Source: Naegleria gruberi (lineage: Eukaryota). From it: 64,000 nt of DNA. Where the stretch lies: NCBI GenBank assembly GCA_000004985.1, contig GG738855.1, one strand, 5' to 3'. Below, in pieces: positions 5,710 to 59,560 of this stretch (position 1 is the stretch's first letter; each line of letters begins with the position of its first letter). The translations under genes and the position numbers were made by a program. The notes beneath the pieces were generated by a model that saw only the letters and a program-made list of their open reading frames with translations, was not told the origin of the DNA and ran no database searches.

Positions 5710-7863
5710 ATGTTTAAAAGGACAAAATTTAATATTCTCTCATCACCATGTTCCTCTTCTGTGATGAAGAAACAATTATTGATATTGCTCCGAACAAGTA
5801 TTCCTTCTTATTGTTATCACCATTCGTCCTTTCCAACATCAACAACCTTCGGATCATCTAAAAATACTCTGGCCAATTTCAAATATTCATCGTGCAAAAT
5901 CAATCCTGAACATGGGCAACTTTTTCAAAAACATCATCAACACCAACAACAATACCATCATCAAACAAGCAAATTTAATTCCAAAATTAAATCGTCATCA
6001 CCCCAAGAAAAAATGAACAACAATCATAATTCAACCATCACCAGTACCAACAAGGAAGAACAAGTGTTGGAGGACATACCAATGGGAAGTTCTTTGGTTC
6101 CACATTCAAGCCACAATTTTTGGAAATTAGAAAGTATTCATAATCCGGTGTATCATGTTCATGAAGATCACGAAGATCACTTGTATACAGAAGAAAAACA
6201 TATTTATTTAAAAGAACACAGATTTCATAAAGCTTCCCATGATAAGTATAAACATGCTTTGGAGAAATTACCTGATGGACCACTCACAAAAGAAAATCAA
6301 CCTAAAATTCATATAACACAAGAGGAGGAAAAGATTTTCTCATTCTTATTGGAAGTAAATAATCATTTCAAGCTGGGAACTACTTTAAGAGTTGCTGGAG
6401 GTTGGGTAAGAAACAAATTATTGGGATTGGATGGTGATGATGTGGATATTGCAATTGATAACATGATGGGAGCTGACTTTGCTAATTATGTTTCACAATA
6501 TGAAAAACTCAAGGGCTTACCTTCCAAGGCTATTGGTATCATCAGTGCCAATCCAGAACAAAGTAAACACTTGGAGACAGCCACTACTCATATTTTTGGT
6601 CAATCCATCGACTTTGTAAATTTAAGAAGTGAAGAATATGCTGAAGAATCAAGAATTCCATCAAATATCAAACTTGGAACTCCACTTCAAGATGCTAATA
6701 GAAGAGACTTGACTATCAATGCTCTCTTTTATAATTTGAATGAACAAATTATTGAAGATTTTACTGGAAAGGGTATGCATGATATGAAACATAGAATTGT
6801 TAGAACTCCACTCCCACCAGTCCAAACATTTTTGGATGATCCATTGAGAGTTTTGAGATCTATCAGATTTGCTTGTTTCTTTGATTTTTTAATTGCTGAT
6901 GAAATAATGGATGCTGCTCATAACCATGATGTTGATGTTGCACTTGCTGAAAAAGTCAGTAGAGAACGAGTGGGTACAGAACTTTTGAAAATACTCAAGG
7001 GACACGATCCAGTTGGTGCCTTTGCCTTGATTGGAGAAATGAAAATCAGGCACATTGTCTTTACCTATTCTACTGGAGACAAGAAGAAGAAGGACCTATT
7101 CCCTCGCGAATATATTAATCCAATTCCAATTGAGTGGAAGGACCAATTACAATGGGAAAATTCTCTCTATAGAATGCGTGTCATGATTAAGCTTGCAAAG
7201 AAGTATAATCTCTCTTTAGATGAAAGAGTAGAATTATTGCTTGCTGGTTTTCTTTCTCCAATTACAAGTCATGATATGTCGAGAGAGCAAATTGAAGAAA
7301 TTTGTTACAACTTGATTGTTTCATCTCTGAGATTACCTTTGAAATTGGCAGGAAATGTATCAACAATAATTTACGGAGCTCATTACATTAAGGGTAAAGT
7401 ATTGGTTTGTGAGGAAAACAAGGCCAGTTTGGATGAACAATTCTTTGCTAATATCATCTCAGAGGATCGGGTATTAGTTGGTAGATGGCTGAAAAATACT
7501 GTCAAACACTTGTATGATAAGTCTTTAATGTTATGTAACGTAATCAACACTCAAGGAACTGAATTTACTGAAAAGAGATGTTTCAGAGCTGTCAAGTTCT
7601 TAAAAGCTCTCAACGAACAACATGTCAAGTTAATAGAATTGAGTCAATCATCATCCCCACTTAAAGGCAATGAAATTTCAACTGCTCTTGATGTTCCTCC
7701 TGGACCAATCATTGCTGAAGTTGGAGAAGATTTGAGTACTTTCATTTTCCAAAATTATCCTCAAATTGTGGATAGAGAACAAGCTTTCGAATGGCTTGCT
7801 GAAAATGCTCAAACTTATAAATCAAAAGCAGAACTCAATCCAAAGAAGAAGCAAAAGAAATAA
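5710..7863 (+). CDS. CCA-adding tRNA nucleotidyltransferase (class II polymerase-beta family) with a roughly 190-aa His/Gln-rich N-terminal extension
   Basis: Motifs LRVAGGWVRNKLLG, DDVDIAID, RRDLTINALFYN, and a HD-like tail domain. Confidence 0.9.
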   Translation: MFKRTKFNILSSPCSSSVMKKQLLILLRTSIPSYCYHHSSFPTSTTFGSSKNTLANFKYSSCKINPEHGQLFQKHHQHQQQYHHQTSKFNSKIKSSSPQEKMNNNHNSTITSTNKEEQVLEDIPMGSSLVPHSSHNFWKLESIHNPVYHVHEDHEDHLYTEEKHIYLKEHRFHKASHDKYKHALEKLPDGPLTKENQPKIHITQEEEKIFSFLLEVNNHFKLGTTLRVAGGWVRNKLLGLDGDDVDIAIDNMMGADFANYVSQYEKLKGLPSKAIGIISANPEQSKHLETATTHIFGQSIDFVNLRSEEYAEESRIPSNIKLGTPLQDANRRDLTINALFYNLNEQIIEDFTGKGMHDMKHRIVRTPLPPVQTFLDDPLRVLRSIRFACFFDFLIADEIMDAAHNHDVDVALAEKVSRERVGTELLKILKGHDPVGAFALIGEMKIRHIVFTYSTGDKKKKDLFPREYINPIPIEWKDQLQWENSLYRMRVMIKLAKKYNLSLDERVELLLAGFLSPITSHDMSREQIEEICYNLIVSSLRLPLKLAGNVSTIIYGAHYIKGKVLVCEENKASLDEQFFANIISEDRVLVGRWLKNTVKHLYDKSLMLCNVINTQGTEFTEKRCFRAVKFLKALNEQHVKLIELSQSSSPLKGNEISTALDVPPGPIIAEVGEDLSTFIFQNYPQIVDREQAFEWLAENAQTYKSKAELNPKKKQKK

Positions 7864-48754: not shown

Positions 48755-51700
48755 ATGTCTACAAACCCATCACGTAGATCAAACTTTCATTCTAGAGGCT
48801 CCATCTCGAGCAGCAGCCCAACACTAGATGAATTTACTATCGGTAGGTGTTATCAACACTAGTTGATGGGCTAATATCATATTATTCTTATGTAATATTT
48901 TCAACATTTATTATGTGGAACAAATATTTGTGTGGATTAATAATAACAATAATAGAAAATTATAAAAGAAAGATCAAGGAGCAAGAATCGGAAATAAGTG
49001 ATCTCCAAAAGGAACTCCATAATTTTCGTATGAAGGAAAGTGATTTTATGTTTAATTCTTTGTTGATGAAGTTTTCATCAGAAAAGAAGAGGAAGAGAGA
49101 TGAGTTCGATGAAGATTCTTGCAATGACACCAGTCAAAGTGTAGCAAAAGCCGAGCAACAAAACACCCACCAAAGCACTCATCTTGCAAATGGAAAACCA
49201 CAAATCACTTTGGAAGAACACGAAAAAAAGATTTCCGAATATACTGCTCAAGTAGAAAACCTAGAGAAGGAAAATTCCGATTGGAAAACCCAAATAACCT
49301 CCTTGAAGGAATTACATGGAAAATTAGAACATCAATTCAATCAGCTTACAGAACAATTAGAAAAGTCTCTCACTGAAAACAAAAGAATTACTGAGGTTTG
49401 TGCTCAAAACGAACAAGCTGTCAAGAAGGCAGAAAGTGAAATCGAATCTTTAAGAAATGAGTTGAAACAAAAAGAAAATATCCTAAACCAATCTAATCAA
49501 GAGTTGGAAACCAGAAAGAATGAGTTGGAAAATGTGAAGAAAGAGTTAGATAGTGTAAAGAGCGAGATGGAATCACAAATCAAACAATTGACCACTCAGC
49601 TCGAACAAAATCGACAACCTGTAACTCAAATTGCTAACAATGACGAGAAGGAAAAGGAGCTCACTCAACAAGTTAAGAATCTTGAGGAAGTTAATTCTAA
49701 ACTTCAACAAGAAATTGTCAGTCTCAACAAGGAAAAGGCCTCATTGGAGCAATTAAATGTTACTCTCAACAGTGATTTGATTAATTCACATGAACAAGAA
49801 AAGGAAAGAGCCAAGAAGGTCAATGAGCTGGAATCGACATTGTCCCTACTTGATGATGACAAGAAGAGACTCGAACTTCTCATCAAGGAAAATGAAACAC
49901 TCTCCGAGGAACGTGTTCGTACTGCTTTGAATGAATCCGAGAGTAAGGATGCTCGTATCACAGAGTTGGAACAACAAAAACAAGATCTCACTACTCATGT
50001 GGAAGAGTTAAAGACTAAAATCAGTGATATTACCAATAACCAATCCAATTATGATCAACAACTTGTGTCTGAAATTGAAAATCAAAAACAATTAATCACA
50101 CAAAAAACACAAGAATTGGAAGAGAGAAATGCTAAAATTGTGGAATTGGATAGCCATGTCCAAAAATTACAACAAGACCTCTCTAATGAAAAGGAACAAA
50201 GCACTAAGAGTATGAATGAAATCACATCACAAATTGAAGCACTCAAATCAGAATTATCTGCAGCCACTGAGAGTCATGCTATAGTTTTGAATGAAAAGAC
50301 CACACTCCAGAATGATATTCAAATTCTTGAAAATGATAAGAATCAATTAAGTATCCAACTTAAAGAAATTCAAGGACACCACGAAAGCCTTCAAGCTTCT
50401 ATTTTGGAAAATGAAAAACAAAAACAAGGTTTGCAAACATCTCTATCAGAATACGAAATCAAAATCGCTCAAAACTCTGAACAAATTAACTTGTTACAGG
50501 CACAAATCGAAAGTCTCAAACAAGTTGAAACACAACTCCAAAACTTGAAATCTGAAAATGAACAATTACAACAACAAGCCACCTCTTATACCGAGTTATT
50601 AAAGAAGAGAGAGGGCGAACTTACCAATCAACAAGAAAAAGAACAACAATTGTTACACCAAAAGGAAGAGGAGATTAAAAGTATTCAAACCAAATATCAA
50701 GAAAGTATCAAAAAGAGAGATGTCAAATTGAATAACATGGAAAGCGAAATCCAAGAATTGAAGAAAGCCTTGGAATCTGCCACCTCTGAAAAGAATCTTC
50801 TTAATACAACTATTGAACAACAAAAGAAGACATTTGAAGACAAACTTGACGATATTAATACACGACACCAAGAAGAAAAGAAGAATCAAGAAAAGCTAGC
50901 AGCATCTCTTACAGAAACATTGAACGAAAAGAATACTTTGGTGGAAAAACTCAAGAGTGAAAAGAATGCCCTAGTTGAAGAAAGATCTCAATTGAAAGCT
51001 AAAGAGGAACTTTTACAAACAACCATTGAACGCTATCGTGCCGAAACAGAGGTGGAATCCAATAATAATAAGAAGAAGGGTGTTAAGCGTGATTCTCAAG
51101 ATGATACTGCACCAACATCTTCCTCAACAATGGACCCTCCAAAGAAGAAGGTAAAGAATGACACACCTGCTAAGAAAGAATTCAAAGTTATATTTTCTGG
51201 TTTTAATGACAAGATTGCCAAGTATACTAATGCTTTCAAGAAGACTTTGGAGGATTATGTTAAGGAATTAGGAGGAGTTATTGTTGACGATGTAGATATG
51301 GGAGCAACACATGTTGTAGCACCACCTGGTGTCAGAAGTAAGTACTATTGATTACCTAAATTATTAACAAGTGTCAGCAATCAAGGTTCTCCAGGCAGCA
51401 GTTGCACACATTTGGATCATGAATCCTGAATGGCTTGAGGAATGTAAGAAACATTCCAAGCTTGTTGGTATGTTGTTGTAAACATTTAAATTCTAATTTT
51501 TCCAAGACGAATCTTCTTTTGGTAAACTGAGAGAGGAAGAATTATTTAAGGGAAAGAATGTCGGTTTTACTGACGCATTTAAAAAGGAATGTGATAATTC
51601 AAAGTATAAGGCTCAAAAAAGAATGACCAATGCCAAAACTCTTGTGGAAGGAGGGTCAGGAGCTGTTACTGAAATGGAAGAAGCTGAATTGATTTTAGTG

Positions 51701-51928: not shown

Positions 51929-54289
51929 TTAAAGGAAGAATGGGTTATTACGAAGTTTTGTTGATGGGTATTCTTGTGTCAAGTCAACTGATTCAATTGA
52001 TTTTTTGGCGTAGAGTAAACATGCTGGCATTCTTACAGAACCATTCCAATTATAGTAGAGATGTGTTTGTCTGAAAGTAATTTTGATAATCTCATCAACT
52101 GAGAACATGGTATTGTTGAACAAAACTTGGTATCTGACTGGTTTGCTGTATCCAATATTACTATTAATAAAGCACGAGTTCATGTAAAATTCTTGAGTTT
52201 GGTATCTTGACATACTGGTAACAACAGTACCAATTGGTGGATTCTGATTATCCATATTAAATCTGGCATTAGAGTCCTTGTTTACACTAACCAGGCAAAC
52301 TTTGGTATATTCCATTTCAGCTTCAAGACAAAAGTCATGAATAAGTTGAGAAATATCAATACAATCATGTCCACTATTGTACAAAATCAAAGCACTAGGC
52401 ATTCCTCCACTGTTTCTATTACGAAAAGCTTGCAAGGCCTCCTTAATACTTGACAATAACTTGTTACGAATGTTTGTTTCATCACTCTCTCTGAAGGGAA
52501 CTGTATAATACAGAGTAGTACTAGTATTTAGTGAGAGTGAAATGGAGCCTTTAAAGTTTCTTCCCTTTCTCTGAATATCAATACCACAAACTGATACAAA
52601 CTCTTGATAGGATCTTTCGACAGACCAAATAAGACCACCAATCTTGGCTGACATTTGTATCAAACAATTAGGAAGTCTCTTAAACCAATCTCCATTACAA
52701 ACAATACATTGTGAAGGAATACCAACAGTACAATTGTAAAACTGTTTCAATGCACTGTAAATATGCTTATTTTCATTAGCCATGAGGAAAAAGACATAGT
52801 CCAGGTCATTCCAATTTTTGTAACCTTCAATATCATGCATAAAATCTCTACCACGATCATCCAAATCAAATACAAGAGGCTTTCCCAAATCGTACCTTCT
52901 AATGGCATCCATAAATCCTTTAACAAGGAATTGTGGTGATACAAGCGCCCAATTTTTTCCTTGCAAACTGTTAATGACAGTATCCATAGAAACAGTCCAT
53001 TTGTCATTTTTCATGCCTTCAATTCCAGAGACTTGTGGTTGTGGAACAACAGTAAAGCTAGTTTCAAGTGCTCTGTCGATTTGCAATCCAACCGAATCAA
53101 GGAATTGTCTTGACTCTCCACTATTCATTTTGTTAGAAATTCTGGTTATGTAGTCTTCCTTTTGTGTAACTGATTTCTTTGGAATTTTCCTCAAATCCTT
53201 CTTGTTAATACCAGAAATGTAACAAAGTTCTGGAATCAGATAGTTAACTTGTTTTTTCTGATTTCTCATCTTGACCATAACACAAATCAAAGGCTGATTC
53301 TTATCTCTAACATTGATATTGTATCTTTCCTTATAGTATTCAAAGTAAGGAACATCTTTTCCATCTTTTTTAAAGGTCGATGAAGGTGTTTGGTTGAAAT
53401 CAATATCCTTAATGACAAATGATCTATTATTGTAGACGATACTGAGACCCTTATATCTTTCTGCTATGGATAAATAGTTATCTCTTTGCATATCATTCTT
53501 CAAATCTTCAATCATGGAATATCTGCTAGTGATCTTTTGTTTGAATGTTAAGGAGAGACACAAACCACTTCCAAGGAAGGCTAAAGCAGGAATAACACCA
53601 TCTCTCACAGAGTATCTATCAACGATAGCGCCTTCTTTTTCAACTTCAGCAAATCCCAATCTATCCATCTTTAAGTATTTAAAAACCTTGGTCAGACAAA
53701 ATGAAATAGCCTGTTCTAATCTAGTATCTTGAATATTATTGTTAATGGAAACTTCAGTCTTTCCTTCAATTTTCACTAAGAATGGAATCTTGACACCATT
53801 CTTTTCGTATGGCATAACAATTTCTAAGGATGGAACCTTCTCAACAGAAACAATTAATGAGCCATCAAACATTGGCAATCCAGGAATTTGTGAGGTCCAA
53901 TTATAAGTCTTTTTTATCATGAAAAACAACTTGAATTTGAATGGAACTATATTCAACATGGATTCAGCCCATCTCTTACTTTCTTCTGGAATTTCAGCCC
54001 ATTCGGTTGTTTTGGATGCACAAGTCACAGAAAATGATGATAATTCGAAAATTCTATTCGGAAGCATTCTGATTGGAAAGAAGTTTGTTTTAATTCTATC
54101 GGATGATGTTCTTTGCCCTCCGTGGCCTCCTTGATAGCCTCCTCCACGACCACCAAAGCCTCCATGTCCTCCTTGATAACCTCCTCCACGGTGGTGACCA
54201 CCACCCTGGTGATGTGATGGTCTTCCAGAGTTGTCCTCCTTGAAACGTTTGTTATAGTCTTGATTTCCTTCGAAGCCTCTCTTGCTCAT
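51929..54289 (-). CDS. Argonaute/PIWI-family protein with an N-terminal RGG/GGH-repeat region
   Basis: RGG box (GGGHHRGGGYQGGHGGFGGRGGGYQGG). PAZ-like YLIPELCYISG. PIWI motifs (VCGIDIQRKG; ALILYNSGHD; SVRMPACLLYAKKS, compare SIPAPAYYAHLVA). ATG at 54289; the track start is TTG. Confidence 0.85.
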   Translation of the reverse strand: MSKRGFEGNQDYNKRFKEDNSGRPSHHQGGGHHRGGGYQGGHGGFGGRGGGYQGGHGGQRTSSDRIKTNFFPIRMLPNRIFELSSFSVTCASKTTEWAEIPEESKRWAESMLNIVPFKFKLFFMIKKTYNWTSQIPGLPMFDGSLIVSVEKVPSLEIVMPYEKNGVKIPFLVKIEGKTEVSINNNIQDTRLEQAISFCLTKVFKYLKMDRLGFAEVEKEGAIVDRYSVRDGVIPALAFLGSGLCLSLTFKQKITSRYSMIEDLKNDMQRDNYLSIAERYKGLSIVYNNRSFVIKDIDFNQTPSSTFKKDGKDVPYFEYYKERYNINVRDKNQPLICVMVKMRNQKKQVNYLIPELCYISGINKKDLRKIPKKSVTQKEDYITRISNKMNSGESRQFLDSVGLQIDRALETSFTVVPQPQVSGIEGMKNDKWTVSMDTVINSLQGKNWALVSPQFLVKGFMDAIRRYDLGKPLVFDLDDRGRDFMHDIEGYKNWNDLDYVFFLMANENKHIYSALKQFYNCTVGIPSQCIVCNGDWFKRLPNCLIQMSAKIGGLIWSVERSYQEFVSVCGIDIQRKGRNFKGSISLSLNTSTTLYYTVPFRESDETNIRNKLLSSIKEALQAFRNRNSGGMPSALILYNSGHDCIDISQLIHDFCLEAEMEYTKVCLVSVNKDSNARFNMDNQNPPIGTVVTSMSRYQTQEFYMNSCFINSNIGYSKPVRYQVLFNNTMFSVDEIIKITFRQTHLYYNWNGSVRMPACLLYAKKSIESVDLTQEYPSTKLRNNPFFL

Positions 54290-54789: not shown

Positions 54790-54905
54790 AACTACGGCCA
54801 TATCACGATGAATGCATCTCATCCCGTCCGATTTGAGAAGCATCGTCGAGCCACATCAGTACTGAGGTTGGAGACAACTTGGGAACCTGTGGTGCTGTAG
54901 TCTTT
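54790..54905 (+). rRNA. 5S ribosomal RNA gene
   Basis: Matches universal 5S elements (ACGGCCATATCAC, GAATGCATCTCATCCCGTCCGATTTGAGAAG loop C, AGTACTGAGGTTGGAGAC, TTGGGAACC, GGTGCTGTAG). Ends pair as helix I (AACTACGGC / GCTGTAGT). Followed by a T6 Pol III terminator (TCTTTGTTTTTT). Ends are approximate to a few nt. Confidence 0.85.
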
Positions 54906-54987
54906 GTTTTTTCACAATATTTACGAACATTTTGACATACTATCATTAAAGGAAACGCGCATTGCTGTGCAAAAGAAAAAAGGTAAT

Positions 54988-55060
54988 CTCCCCCTGGTGG
55001 GCTCGAACCACCGACCTGCAGATTAACAGTCTGACGCTCTACCGACTGAGCTAAGGGGGA
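54988..55060 (-). tRNA. tRNA-Asn (anticodon GTT)
   Basis: Reverse complement gives TCCCCCTTAGCTCAGTCGGTAGAGCGTCAGACTGTTAATCTGCAGGTCGGTGGTTCGAGCCCACCAGGGGGAG. It has a 7-bp acceptor stem, D-arm GCTCAGTCGGTAGAGC, anticodon loop CTGTTAA, T-arm GGTGGTTCGAGCCCACC, and a T6 terminator 4 nt downstream on the minus strand. Confidence 0.9.
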
Positions 55061-55064
55061 TTAC

Positions 55065-55113
55065 GAACATTTTTCCATTGTAAAAAGAACATTTTTCCAT
55101 TGTAAAAAGAACA
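55065..55113. repeat. 22-bp tandem direct repeat (about 2.2 copies) in the tRNA 5' flank
   Basis: GAACATTTTTCCATTGTAAAAA is repeated exactly at 55065..55086 and 55087..55108, then a partial GAACA. Confidence 0.8.
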
Positions 55114-55269: not shown

Positions 55270-56505
55270 ATGGAAAATCAAATCGAACCAATTTCTCTCA
55301 TTCTTTCCGATTCTCCCTCATCAACACTTCTCAAACAACATTTTCACTCACAAACTCGATCCCTCCTCCAAAGATACAATCAAAACCGTAAATATCTCAA
55401 ACAAGTAAAAGACAGTGCTGGTCGATGTTTAGAATTCTTTCCCGGAACAATCAAATCAAGAGAATTAGCAATCTATGGTCTTTCTCAGTGTGGTAGTTAT
55501 TTGAGTAAATGTTCCGAGGTGTTGAGGAATGATGAATTGGTTGTCTCGATTGCTGTTCGACAGGATGGTCTCTCACTCCAATTTGCCAGTGATTTATTGA
55601 GGAGTAGGAGGGAGATTGTTATGCAAGCTGTTCAACAGAATGGAATGGCATTGAAGTATGTTGAAAAGAAATCGGAAATGTTGAAGGAGAGGGAAATTGT
55701 TATGAAAGCCATTCTCACTACTCCGATGGTGTTGATGGAATTTAATGAAAAGGATTTGATTTCTGATAGGGAAATGGCATTGACTCTCATCAGACAAAAT
55801 CCTACAATATTCAAATTTCTGAATAGTCAATTAAAATCAGAGAGGGATATACAATTGGAAATTCTATCATTGGATGGGAAATATTTGGAATTTTTCAATG
55901 AGGACATGTTATTGTGTAGTGATAGGAAATTGGCATTCCTTGCTGCAAGAAATAGTAAATTGGCTTATCCTTTCATTGAGAAATCACTGAGGGATGAAAT
56001 TGCTTTGGAAAAGGGTGATTTGACATTTGTGGAGAAGGTTTCAAGAATTCAAATAGGAGAGTATGCTCTCCTGACAAGCAATCAAATTCCATGTCAGATT
56101 GAAAGTATTGAAAAGGATTATAGTTCATCAAAGTGTGGGCCTTCATTCAAAATTAATATTTCAGGAAGAGCTCTATTTGCTCAATTAACTATTAATAATT
56201 CAAATCCAATACATATGACCTATTTTGCCAGTGTCAGTAATTTATCTGCACTGGTGTGCCCTTTCGTTTACAGAATCAAGTGTCAACTAATTGGAATTTC
56301 AGAAAATGAGACCCTTCTAATGAATATAATTTCAAGTGATTCAAATGCAAAGCTCTCACAATTTCACAAAAATCTCCTACCTGACTCAATTATTAATTGT
56401 TTAACAGACTCAAACACAATTTTAGAAATTATTCAAGTAATGGGTGAGCAAAAGATTGTGAGCATTACTCAAAACAATATCACCACATTACTTTCATATC
56501 AGTAA
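55270..56505 (+). CDS. DUF4116-type repeat protein (hypothetical)
   Basis: Tandem ~35-aa repeats of the form ELVVSIAVRQDGLSLQFASDLLRSRREIVMQAVQQNGMALKYV / EMLKEREIVMKAIL… characteristic of the DUF4116 family. Confidence 0.5.
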   Translation: MENQIEPISLILSDSPSSTLLKQHFHSQTRSLLQRYNQNRKYLKQVKDSAGRCLEFFPGTIKSRELAIYGLSQCGSYLSKCSEVLRNDELVVSIAVRQDGLSLQFASDLLRSRREIVMQAVQQNGMALKYVEKKSEMLKEREIVMKAILTTPMVLMEFNEKDLISDREMALTLIRQNPTIFKFLNSQLKSERDIQLEILSLDGKYLEFFNEDMLLCSDRKLAFLAARNSKLAYPFIEKSLRDEIALEKGDLTFVEKVSRIQIGEYALLTSNQIPCQIESIEKDYSSSKCGPSFKINISGRALFAQLTINNSNPIHMTYFASVSNLSALVCPFVYRIKCQLIGISENETLLMNIISSDSNAKLSQFHKNLLPDSIINCLTDSNTILEIIQVMGEQKIVSITQNNITTLLSYQ

Positions 56506-58291: not shown

Positions 58292-59560
58292 TTAAACAAA
58301 GTTTTGGAAGACTTGGGATCTACGAGCAATAGATGGACCCATTTCATCATATTGAGCCTTGGTATAACAGACTCTCTTGAATTCGTTCATAGTACCCAAC
58401 ATGGAACCACCAAACCAAACAGCAAAACGTTGGTGATTGTGAGCAATAACGTTACATTCCAAAGGACTTGGCTTTGGCTTACCACTTGAAGTCATGGAAA
58501 CAGCTCTTTCATAACGTTCATCCAATTTCTTCTTCATGTCACGTTGTAAACGTCTATCAAAGTGTTCAAACATTGTTGAACCACCAGAAAGGACAATATT
58601 CTTGTACAAAGCTCTACGAGCATCAATTGGTGATGAGAGAATACATTGATCAACAACGTCTGGGAGTGGAGTGCTGAAAGTTTCAGTGAAAATTTCTGGA
58701 TTGAAAAAGACTTCTGGAGCCAAGAATCTTTCATAGGCAACATCAATTTCCCATTTACCAGATCTCTTATTTTCTTGAGAGTACTTGAGAATATTTTCTG
58801 CTGGATTTTGGTCAAATTTACCAAATTCCTTTGCCAAATCGGAACAGACATAACAATACTTTTCCTTGATCTTTTGGACAGCCAATTTGATATCTTCAGA
58901 TGGCATATTCTTTTCACGATCCATAACGAAACGCATCAAGAATTCAGTGACATCTCTACCAGCCAATGGGATGTGTTTAATACTAGAACCAATGACATAA
59001 CCTTCAACAACAGGAATGACGTGAGTAACACCATCACCAGAGTCAATAACAGTACCAGACAATGTACCACCCAAACCAAGCTTTTTAGATTTGGATGATG
59101 TCCAAGAAGCACACAAAGCCAAAACAGCTTGGACAGCAATGTACAAACCAGAAACGTTGAATGTTTCGAACATAATTTCAGCTGTTTGTTCACGATTTTC
59201 TGGTGGATTGAGTGGAGGTTCAGTCAACATCAAGTAGTGATCCTCAGGTTCACATTTCAAATAGTTAAAGAAGCATTGTTCCCACAACATTTCCATCTTG
59301 CTCCAATCTTCAATAAGACCGTGTCTCATTGGATATACCAAATCATAGTTTCCACCAGTTTTTTCTTGTGCTTCATAACCAATGTAGAAATCGAGATCTT
59401 CCAAACCCTTTTCTGCTGATTTTGGATTGTGTGAAATACAGGTTGGAATGATATAGTTTGGTTCACTGTTACCAGCATAACCCATCTTGGTAAAACCAGT
59501 ACCATTGTCAATAACAAGGACTGGATTGTTTCTAGCAATAACGTCGTTGGAATAACTCAT
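58292..59560 (-). CDS. ARP3: Actin-related protein 3 (Arp2/3 complex subunit)
   Basis: End-to-end Arp3 similarity: VIDNGTGFTKMGYAGNSEPNYIIPTCI, EPEDHYLMLTEPPLNPPENREQTAEIMFETFNVSGLYIAVQAVLAL, VIDSGDGVTHVIPVVEGYVIGSSIKHIPLAGRD, IVLSGGSTMF, AVWFGGSML. 422 aa, single exon. Confidence 0.95.
   Translation of the reverse strand: MSYSNDVIARNNPVLVIDNGTGFTKMGYAGNSEPNYIIPTCISHNPKSAEKGLEDLDFYIGYEAQEKTGGNYDLVYPMRHGLIEDWSKMEMLWEQCFFNYLKCEPEDHYLMLTEPPLNPPENREQTAEIMFETFNVSGLYIAVQAVLALCASWTSSKSKKLGLGGTLSGTVIDSGDGVTHVIPVVEGYVIGSSIKHIPLAGRDVTEFLMRFVMDREKNMPSEDIKLAVQKIKEKYCYVCSDLAKEFGKFDQNPAENILKYSQENKRSGKWEIDVAYERFLAPEVFFNPEIFTETFSTPLPDVVDQCILSSPIDARRALYKNIVLSGGSTMFEHFDRRLQRDMKKKLDERYERAVSMTSSGKPKPSPLECNVIAHNHQRFAVWFGGSMLGTMNEFKRVCYTKAQYDEMGPSIARRSQVFQNFV

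Follow-up and report, generated by a model that had tools for sequence, protein, structure and literature searches.

The locus described here is a catalogued member of the known dispersed 5S rRNA gene family of Naegleria gruberi, which lies beside a normal tRNA gene and most likely is somewhat damaged. What is new is that this 5S copy is an outlier. The overall picture that we propose is that two independent RNA polymerase III (Pol III) genes share a spacer of 930 bp, from which the two neighbouring protein genes are transcribed outwards: one is an ordinary tRNA-Asn(GTT) gene, and the other is a member of a dispersed 5S family of approximately 280 copies, located apart from the rDNA.

The stretch of DNA that was analysed (64,000 nucleotides of contig GG738855.1, termed the window) corresponds by coordinate arithmetic to scaffold_11:448001-512000 of the N. 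gruberi assembly (448,000 = 7 x 64,000). The window has a GC content of approximately 35% and carries long, intron-free open reading frames (ORFs). The spacer is flanked by a PAZ/Piwi Argonaute gene on the minus strand (51929-54289) and by the gene for a DUF4116 protein on the plus strand (55270-56505). The DUF4116 product matches a predicted protein of N. gruberi on a contig of 613 kb with 100% identity over its whole length, which establishes the organism. Elsewhere in the window, an ORF of 834 amino acids on the plus strand (48847-51351) is coiled-coil-like, very rich in Glu, Gln, Lys and Leu, and has no Pfam match. An Arp3-like gene on the minus strand (58292-59560) finds no Naegleria-named protein among its best 120 homologues, the best named one being from Acrasis kona (68%); either the annotation or the index has a gap here, or the gene is a divergent paralogue. 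The match to Acrasis had at first suggested an unsequenced heterolobosean, a reading that the full identity of the DUF4116 product to an N. gruberi protein overturned. The segment 58249-60245 is 98.95% identical, with 7 gaps, to an ENA metagenome contig (L001, ERZ929261), which encodes an identical Arp3-like protein; public metagenome data therefore include a second N. gruberi-like strain. This contig spans 2 kb and ends short of the Pol III spacer.

The 5S rRNA gene copy occupies positions 54790 to 54903 on the plus strand and measures 114 nt; its identity is supported by Rfam, the predicted fold, the alignment to a closely related 5S gene and the published coordinates. In a search of the whole 64-kb window, the Rfam model RF00001 matches the gene with 79.7 bits (gathering threshold 38; E = 2.8e-15) and over model positions 1-120. 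An earlier note made from the sequence had called this gene a 5S rRNA, and the Infernal-type check against the full Rfam model upholds the call; the 5S motifs quoted there are indeed present. The minimum free energy (MFE) fold is a three-way junction of -43.1 kcal/mol (z = -3.3), which none of 200 shuffled sequences equals, and the centroid fold is likewise a three-way junction with helix I closing the ends. Loop C, loop E, the AA bulge and a motif resembling box C are all preserved, and a proper terminator of the Pol III type follows the gene (TT G TTTTTT; 54904-54912, plus strand). The RNA is 114 rather than about 119 nt long, and a gap of 5 nt had gone unnoticed in the earlier note.

The same gene has been published before. 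The 5S survey of the N. gruberi assembly lists 279 putative loci on many scaffolds (PMC3369914, Table S1), and one of its entries, R33567 (scaffold_11:502793-502904, 112 nt), translates after subtraction of 448,000 to window positions 54793-54904 and thus to the gene described here; no other non-modal entry yields an offset that aligns with the window. The great majority of the entries in Table S1 measure 117 nt in the authors' BLAST coordinates (PMC3369914). R33567 appears to be the sole 112-nt entry in the R33xxx ID series, which holds nearly all of the 117-nt entries, and with 84/120 matches to the authors' query, compared with a modal value of 90/120, it has the lowest similarity among the near-full-length entries. 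Judged from the listed sequence matches, this count would imply that, besides the loss of 5 nt, the copy has acquired one or two substitutions of its own. Table S1 contains five 112-nt entries in all, which we considered as one deletion subfamily. This grouping was rejected: the other four entries have a denominator of 118 instead of 120, which shows that a different query was used to align them, so that their length could stem from the alignment itself.

In N. gruberi 5S genes are normally dispersed, as has been documented, and the arrangement of the locus is ordinary and not new. Distances between the loci of Table S1 typically range from tens to hundreds of kb, and a few pairs are separated by just 2-3 kb (PMC3369914); the rDNA of Naegleria lies on an extrachromosomal plasmid that carries single copies of the 18S, 5.8S and 28S genes only (PMC12482156). 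Within scaffold_11 448,001-512,000 Table S1 contains no second 5S gene, in agreement with the single Rfam match, and the nearest copies are approximately 60 kb away. Even at a permissive Rfam threshold (E <= 1) the 64 kb contain one 5S gene and no tandem 5S array, and beyond this gene and the tRNA gene further RNA genes are absent bar one chance-level match. Neither SSU, LSU nor 5.8S rRNA has an Rfam match in the window, and thus the 5S gene is not linked to an rDNA unit. Accordingly, the earlier claim that the gene lies outside any 5S array or rDNA unit holds within the window (Rfam, ARAGORN). Its description as "single-copy" is contradicted by the 279 loci and that as "untracked" by the entry R33567 (both PMC3369914, Table S1), and what its dispersal was thought to reveal about the organization of Pol III genes was already documented for N. 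gruberi. The caveat added at the time, a degraded pseudogene copy with a full 5S array elsewhere, proves partly right: the copy is a damaged or variant one and full-length copies exist elsewhere by the hundreds, yet these are dispersed and do not form an array. In summary, the gene agrees with the published family in genome and locus (R33567), in its solitary position between protein genes, in the separation from the rDNA plasmid and in the T-run that follows it; it differs in that 5 nt are missing relative to the modal 117-nt entries and that no box A match is present.

For comparison, 5S genes were collected from metagenomes in a scan that used as the query a 21-mer of loop C and helix III. 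This 21-mer is common to the window 5S and 22 other eukaryotic 5S loci. The complete 5S genes among the 22 loci are 119 nt long and score 87-107 bits, compared to 79.7 for the window copy. Most of the scanned genes are 70-75% identical to the window copy, belong to unrelated eukaryotes and often reside in snRNA clusters. An extremely dense small-RNA gene cluster of a metagenomic eukaryote was found in one 2.3-kb contig (L023, Ga0233403_10017539; 1-2328), where the genes for U1, U5, SRP RNA, U2, U6, U4 and 5S lie back to back; the related contigs L021, L002 and L005 bear 5S-U6(-U3-U5). Another locus (L003, AGTN01317464.1, a 35-kb contig) contains the exact loop C 21-mer in a stretch (7690-7775) with weak similarity to 5S rRNA (nhmmer E = 0.003) that falls below the Rfam threshold, and this stretch could be a fragment of a 5S gene or an element derived from one.

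Among the 22 loci only one, L010 (contig Ga0247722_10036048), is Naegleria-like. Its full-length 5S gene (539-657) sits 165 bp from a hydrolase gene, the nearest proteins of which are from Willaertia magna and Naegleria lovaniensis, and therefore L010 derives from the same amoeba clade. L010 resembles the window locus in that a lone 5S gene lies beside a divergently oriented protein gene, and 110 of 114 bases are identical (96.5%). In contrast to the window copy, however, AAGTT, loop B and box A are intact in L010, the Rfam score amounts to 106 bits (79.7 in the window), and there is no tRNA neighbour. The flanks of the two 5S genes, compared with a possible mobile-element carrier in mind, have only chance-level matches of 9-14 nt in common, and a clade-specific 27-mer of helix IV/V has no match in collections of prokaryotic genomes and viruses. 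The loci orthologous to the L010 hydrolase locus (N. lovaniensis, W. magna and two related contigs; L024-L027) contain neither a 5S nor a tRNA gene, and therefore 5S positions turn over rapidly and are not conserved within the clade. In the comparisons that follow, L010 serves as a stand-in for the modal 5S sequence of N. gruberi, and substitutions specific to the window copy are gauged from match counts only.

The alignment to RF00001 places the 5-nt gap at the conserved uUAAG of model positions 53-57. An alignment with 19 other 5S genes shows this segment (UUAAG) in every one of them. At the deletion junction (GAG-AAG-C; 54835-54841, plus strand) the relatives read GAGAAGTTAAGC, and AAGTT is gone from between the microhomologous AAG...AAG; L010 has GAGAAGTTAAGCATCG where the window 5S has GAGAAGCATCG. 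A canonical 5S rRNA is about 118-121 nt long and has a two-sided loop B; at 114 nt the window copy departs from both features, as the deletion takes out the 3' strand of loop B together with the only stretch that fits the consensus for box A. For N. gruberi 5S genes, an upstream TATA box and an internal control region have been reported, the latter with a box A, and no TFIIIA homologue was found (PMC3369914). Using the box A consensus of that study as a regular expression, L010 matches (GTTAAGC) and the window 5S does not. Of a type 1 internal control region, the window gene thus has the box C-like GGTTGGAGAC and lacks the box A match. The two genes also differ by four substitutions (G1A, G2A, A24T and C28T), and hence the window copy would carry up to four base changes relative to the canonical sequence of the clade. 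G1A converts the terminal pair of helix I to an A-C mismatch, and three of the four changes are GC-to-AT transitions.

We consider it most likely, with somewhat better than even confidence, that the window 5S is a decaying or poorly used member of its family, which would have lost its function. According to the mechanism envisaged, AAGTT was lost by slippage between the AAG triplets, which deprived the gene of one side of loop B (the 3' strand) and of the box A portion of its control region; loss of a segment between two AAG triplets bears the signature of a slippage deletion. The loss of this copy would be buffered by more than 200 full-length copies. Decay is the most likely reading in view of the absence of a universally retained segment and of box A, the three GC-to-AT transitions among four changes, the apparently unique copy within the R33xxx series and the more than 200 intact copies. 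Against decay stand a score more than 40 bits above the Rfam threshold, the preservation of loop C, the AA bulge, loop E, the box C-like motif and the terminator, and a fold that is better than those of shuffled sequences. A comparable case is known from Giardia, where one 5S copy bears a 15-bp insertion (PMC3369914): in both instances an indel affects one member of an otherwise conserved gene with many intact copies. The Giardia copy was found by RT-PCR to be untranscribed (PMC3369914), whereas the window 5S is known here from its sequence.

A tentative alternative, to which we attach distinctly less weight, is that the short 5S gene is a functional variant, in which helices II and III were re-zipped by two substitutions into one continuous and more stable arm, and which an upstream promoter would still drive, giving an RNA that serves in ribosomes or as a 5S-like RNA. 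Each of A24T and C28T adds a pair to the deleted arm and makes it more stable by 2.2-2.4 kcal/mol; among the 144 possible single changes they rank 7 and 9. Together they contribute -4.6 kcal/mol and shift the arm from -11.6 kcal/mol, calculated for L010 with the deletion only, to -16.2 kcal/mol; a gain of this size is reached by only 0.5% of the random double substitutions placed there. In this form the arm is an almost uninterrupted helix in which loop B is closed, and the whole molecule folds with -43.1 kcal/mol, compared to -40.9 for the canonical L010. Two arm-stabilising substitutions look like compensation and hence like selection, but the test for compensation is post hoc, concerns two sites, relies on MFE values from the same sequence and uses L010 in place of the modal N. 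gruberi sequence. Moreover, the predominance of GC-to-AT changes is what neutral drift would produce in a genome with 35% GC. The intact terminator and box C-like motif are compatible with expression, and box A may matter less in an organism with an upstream TATA box and no TFIIIA found (PMC3369914). Yet re-zipping displaces helix II by 3 nt in register, leaves loop A open and yields a shorter arm, such that the position of loop C in the ribosome should be wrong. The retention of UUAAG in 19 of 19 other genes and the apparently unique 112-nt length in the R33xxx series also speak against a functional variant. In its most specific form the proposal states that the gene is not a pseudogene but an expressed, remodelled 5S variant, in which loop B first lost its 3' strand and two compensatory substitutions then created a continuous helix II-III arm; we regard this as improbable. 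The preferred reading remains that of a decaying or poorly used copy.

The second Pol III gene of the spacer is a tRNA-Asn gene on the minus strand (54988-55060), which is recognized by Rfam (RF00005, 67.9 bits) and ARAGORN. The anticodon GTT is found at position 34 of the tRNA (ARAGORN), and a box scan identifies box A TAGCTCAGTCGG and box B GGTTCGAGCCC; there is no intron and no encoded CCA. On its own strand the gene is followed by ATTACC, T6, C and T4; the T6 begins 6 nt past the 3' end (54976-54981 in plus-strand coordinates), and the T-runs form the terminator (54971-54981, minus strand). With a cloverleaf, A and B boxes and a T-run, the gene has what a nuclear-type tRNA-Asn gene requires, and it looks like an ordinary, canonical one. 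In this respect the earlier note, which had described a tRNA-Asn(GTT) with its own T6 on the opposite strand, was correct.

The tRNA gene is bracketed by a direct repeat that the earlier note did not mention. Copy 1, TTACGAACATTTTGACAT, lies at 54921-54938 (plus strand) and pairs with copy 2, TTACGAACATTTTTCCAT, at 55061-55078 (plus strand), which directly adjoins nucleotide 1 of the tRNA and extends into the first unit of a 22-bp tandem repeat. The repeated motif, TTACGAACATTTT, is exact over 13 nt and matches at 16 of 18 positions overall (89%), with a spacing of 140; it encloses the tRNA-Asn gene and its 3' flank. It is conceivable, albeit unlikely, that the tRNA gene and approximately 50 bp of its 3' flank constitute an inserted or duplicated segment, with TTACGAACATTTT as a duplication resembling a target site and the 22-bp repeat grown from the same junction. 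The bracketing repeat and the position of copy 2 at the first nucleotide of the tRNA and across the first 22-bp unit are consistent with such an event. In simulations an exact repeat of at least 13 nt arises by chance in this intergenic region with a probability of approximately 0.023, a marginal significance obtained in a post hoc test, and the 13-mer occurs nowhere else in the window. It is, however, also absent from all other fetched loci, the segment has neither an A-tail nor any other hallmark of an element, and the internal T6 would stop a Pol III transcript ahead of the distal repeat. Furthermore, the tRNA gene is perfectly canonical. Compared with a SINE or tRNA-retroposon, the segment thus has a bracketing 13-nt repeat (p ~0.02, marginal), no tail, an internal terminator and no other copies seen.

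The 22-bp tandem repeat itself, GAACATTTTTCCATTGTAAAAA, extends from 55065 to 55113 (plus strand), or from -5 to -53 relative to the tRNA. The earlier note had reported it as an exact 22-bp duplication of 2.2 units in the 5' flank of the tRNA gene, and Tandem Repeats Finder (TRF) concurs (score 98, period 22, 100% matches). The 22-mer appears in none of 100 shuffles of the window, and beyond its two exact copies it is found neither elsewhere in the 64 kb nor in the 27 fetched loci. The repeat might represent a duplicated upstream promoter element of the tRNA gene, with the TATA-like TTTTTACAAT at -26 and -48; we rate this as unlikely, to about the same degree as the insertion just discussed. 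The position of the repeat on the tRNA strand and its richness in AT would suit a promoter, and upstream TATA-like elements have been reported for N. gruberi 5S genes (PMC3369914), but a canonical TATA is lacking, no further occurrence of the motif is found in the 64 kb or the 27 fetched loci, and the complete identity of the copies points to a recent event and not to a conserved element. Of the two options originally offered, promoter-proximal element or duplication, the former gains no support from this unique motif and the latter gives the simplest reading: the repeat would most simply be a recent duplication by replication slippage, and presumably a neutral one.

The 5S and tRNA genes are convergent, as the earlier note had observed with an estimated distance of about 80 bp; the spacer between them measures 84 bp and contains both terminators, so that each gene has its own T-run. 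A rule that links 5S to tRNA genes, however, does not emerge, as the L010 5S gene has no tRNA gene within 0.5-1.3 kb. Scattered 5S genes outside the rDNA, sometimes located beside tRNA genes, are also known from Yarrowia lipolytica, where TFIIIA-independent expression is likewise at issue and where 48 of the 108 scattered copies require a tRNA gene upstream of them (PMC2566860). A dicistronic tRNA-5S gene of Yarrowia has the tRNA ahead of the 5S on the same strand and gives rise to one fusion RNA (PMC2566860). At the window locus, in contrast, the tRNA gene is not 5' of the 5S gene, the two are on opposite strands and terminators lie between them; given the convergent orientation and the separate terminators, co-transcription of the Yarrowia type is therefore ruled out. 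By this analogy, the short distance of 84 bp and the need of a 5S gene without box A for help might suggest a functional Pol III mini-cluster, in which the TFIIIC/TFIIIB assembled on the tRNA gene assists transcription of the 5S gene, but this is very improbable, since the genes are convergent and not tandem, their own T-runs make a read-through fusion transcript impossible, the nearest related 5S gene (L010) has no tRNA gene nearby, and a family of approximately 280 5S genes is expected to yield roughly one tRNA adjacency by chance (a rough estimate that assumes a few hundred tRNA genes and a genome of approximately 41 Mb). In the sequences compared, no evidence was found that the linkage to the tRNA gene is functional.

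The locus matters little beyond annotation, and it agrees with what has been published on the 5S genes of N. gruberi, which are numerous, scattered and separate from the plasmid-borne rDNA. ORF-based gene tracks miss 5S genes such as this one. A point of some value is the combination of a clean microhomology deletion, which removed a universally kept 5S segment, with two substitutions that stabilise the affected arm. If the gene is expressed, it would test by natural example to what extent a eukaryotic 5S rRNA depends on loop B and box A; an expressed variant, if it proved true, would be a natural 5S or 5S-derived RNA without loop B, made from a gene that has no box A in an organism for which a lack of TFIIIA has been reported. 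If the gene is not expressed, it would simply illustrate the birth-and-death turnover of dispersed 5S genes.
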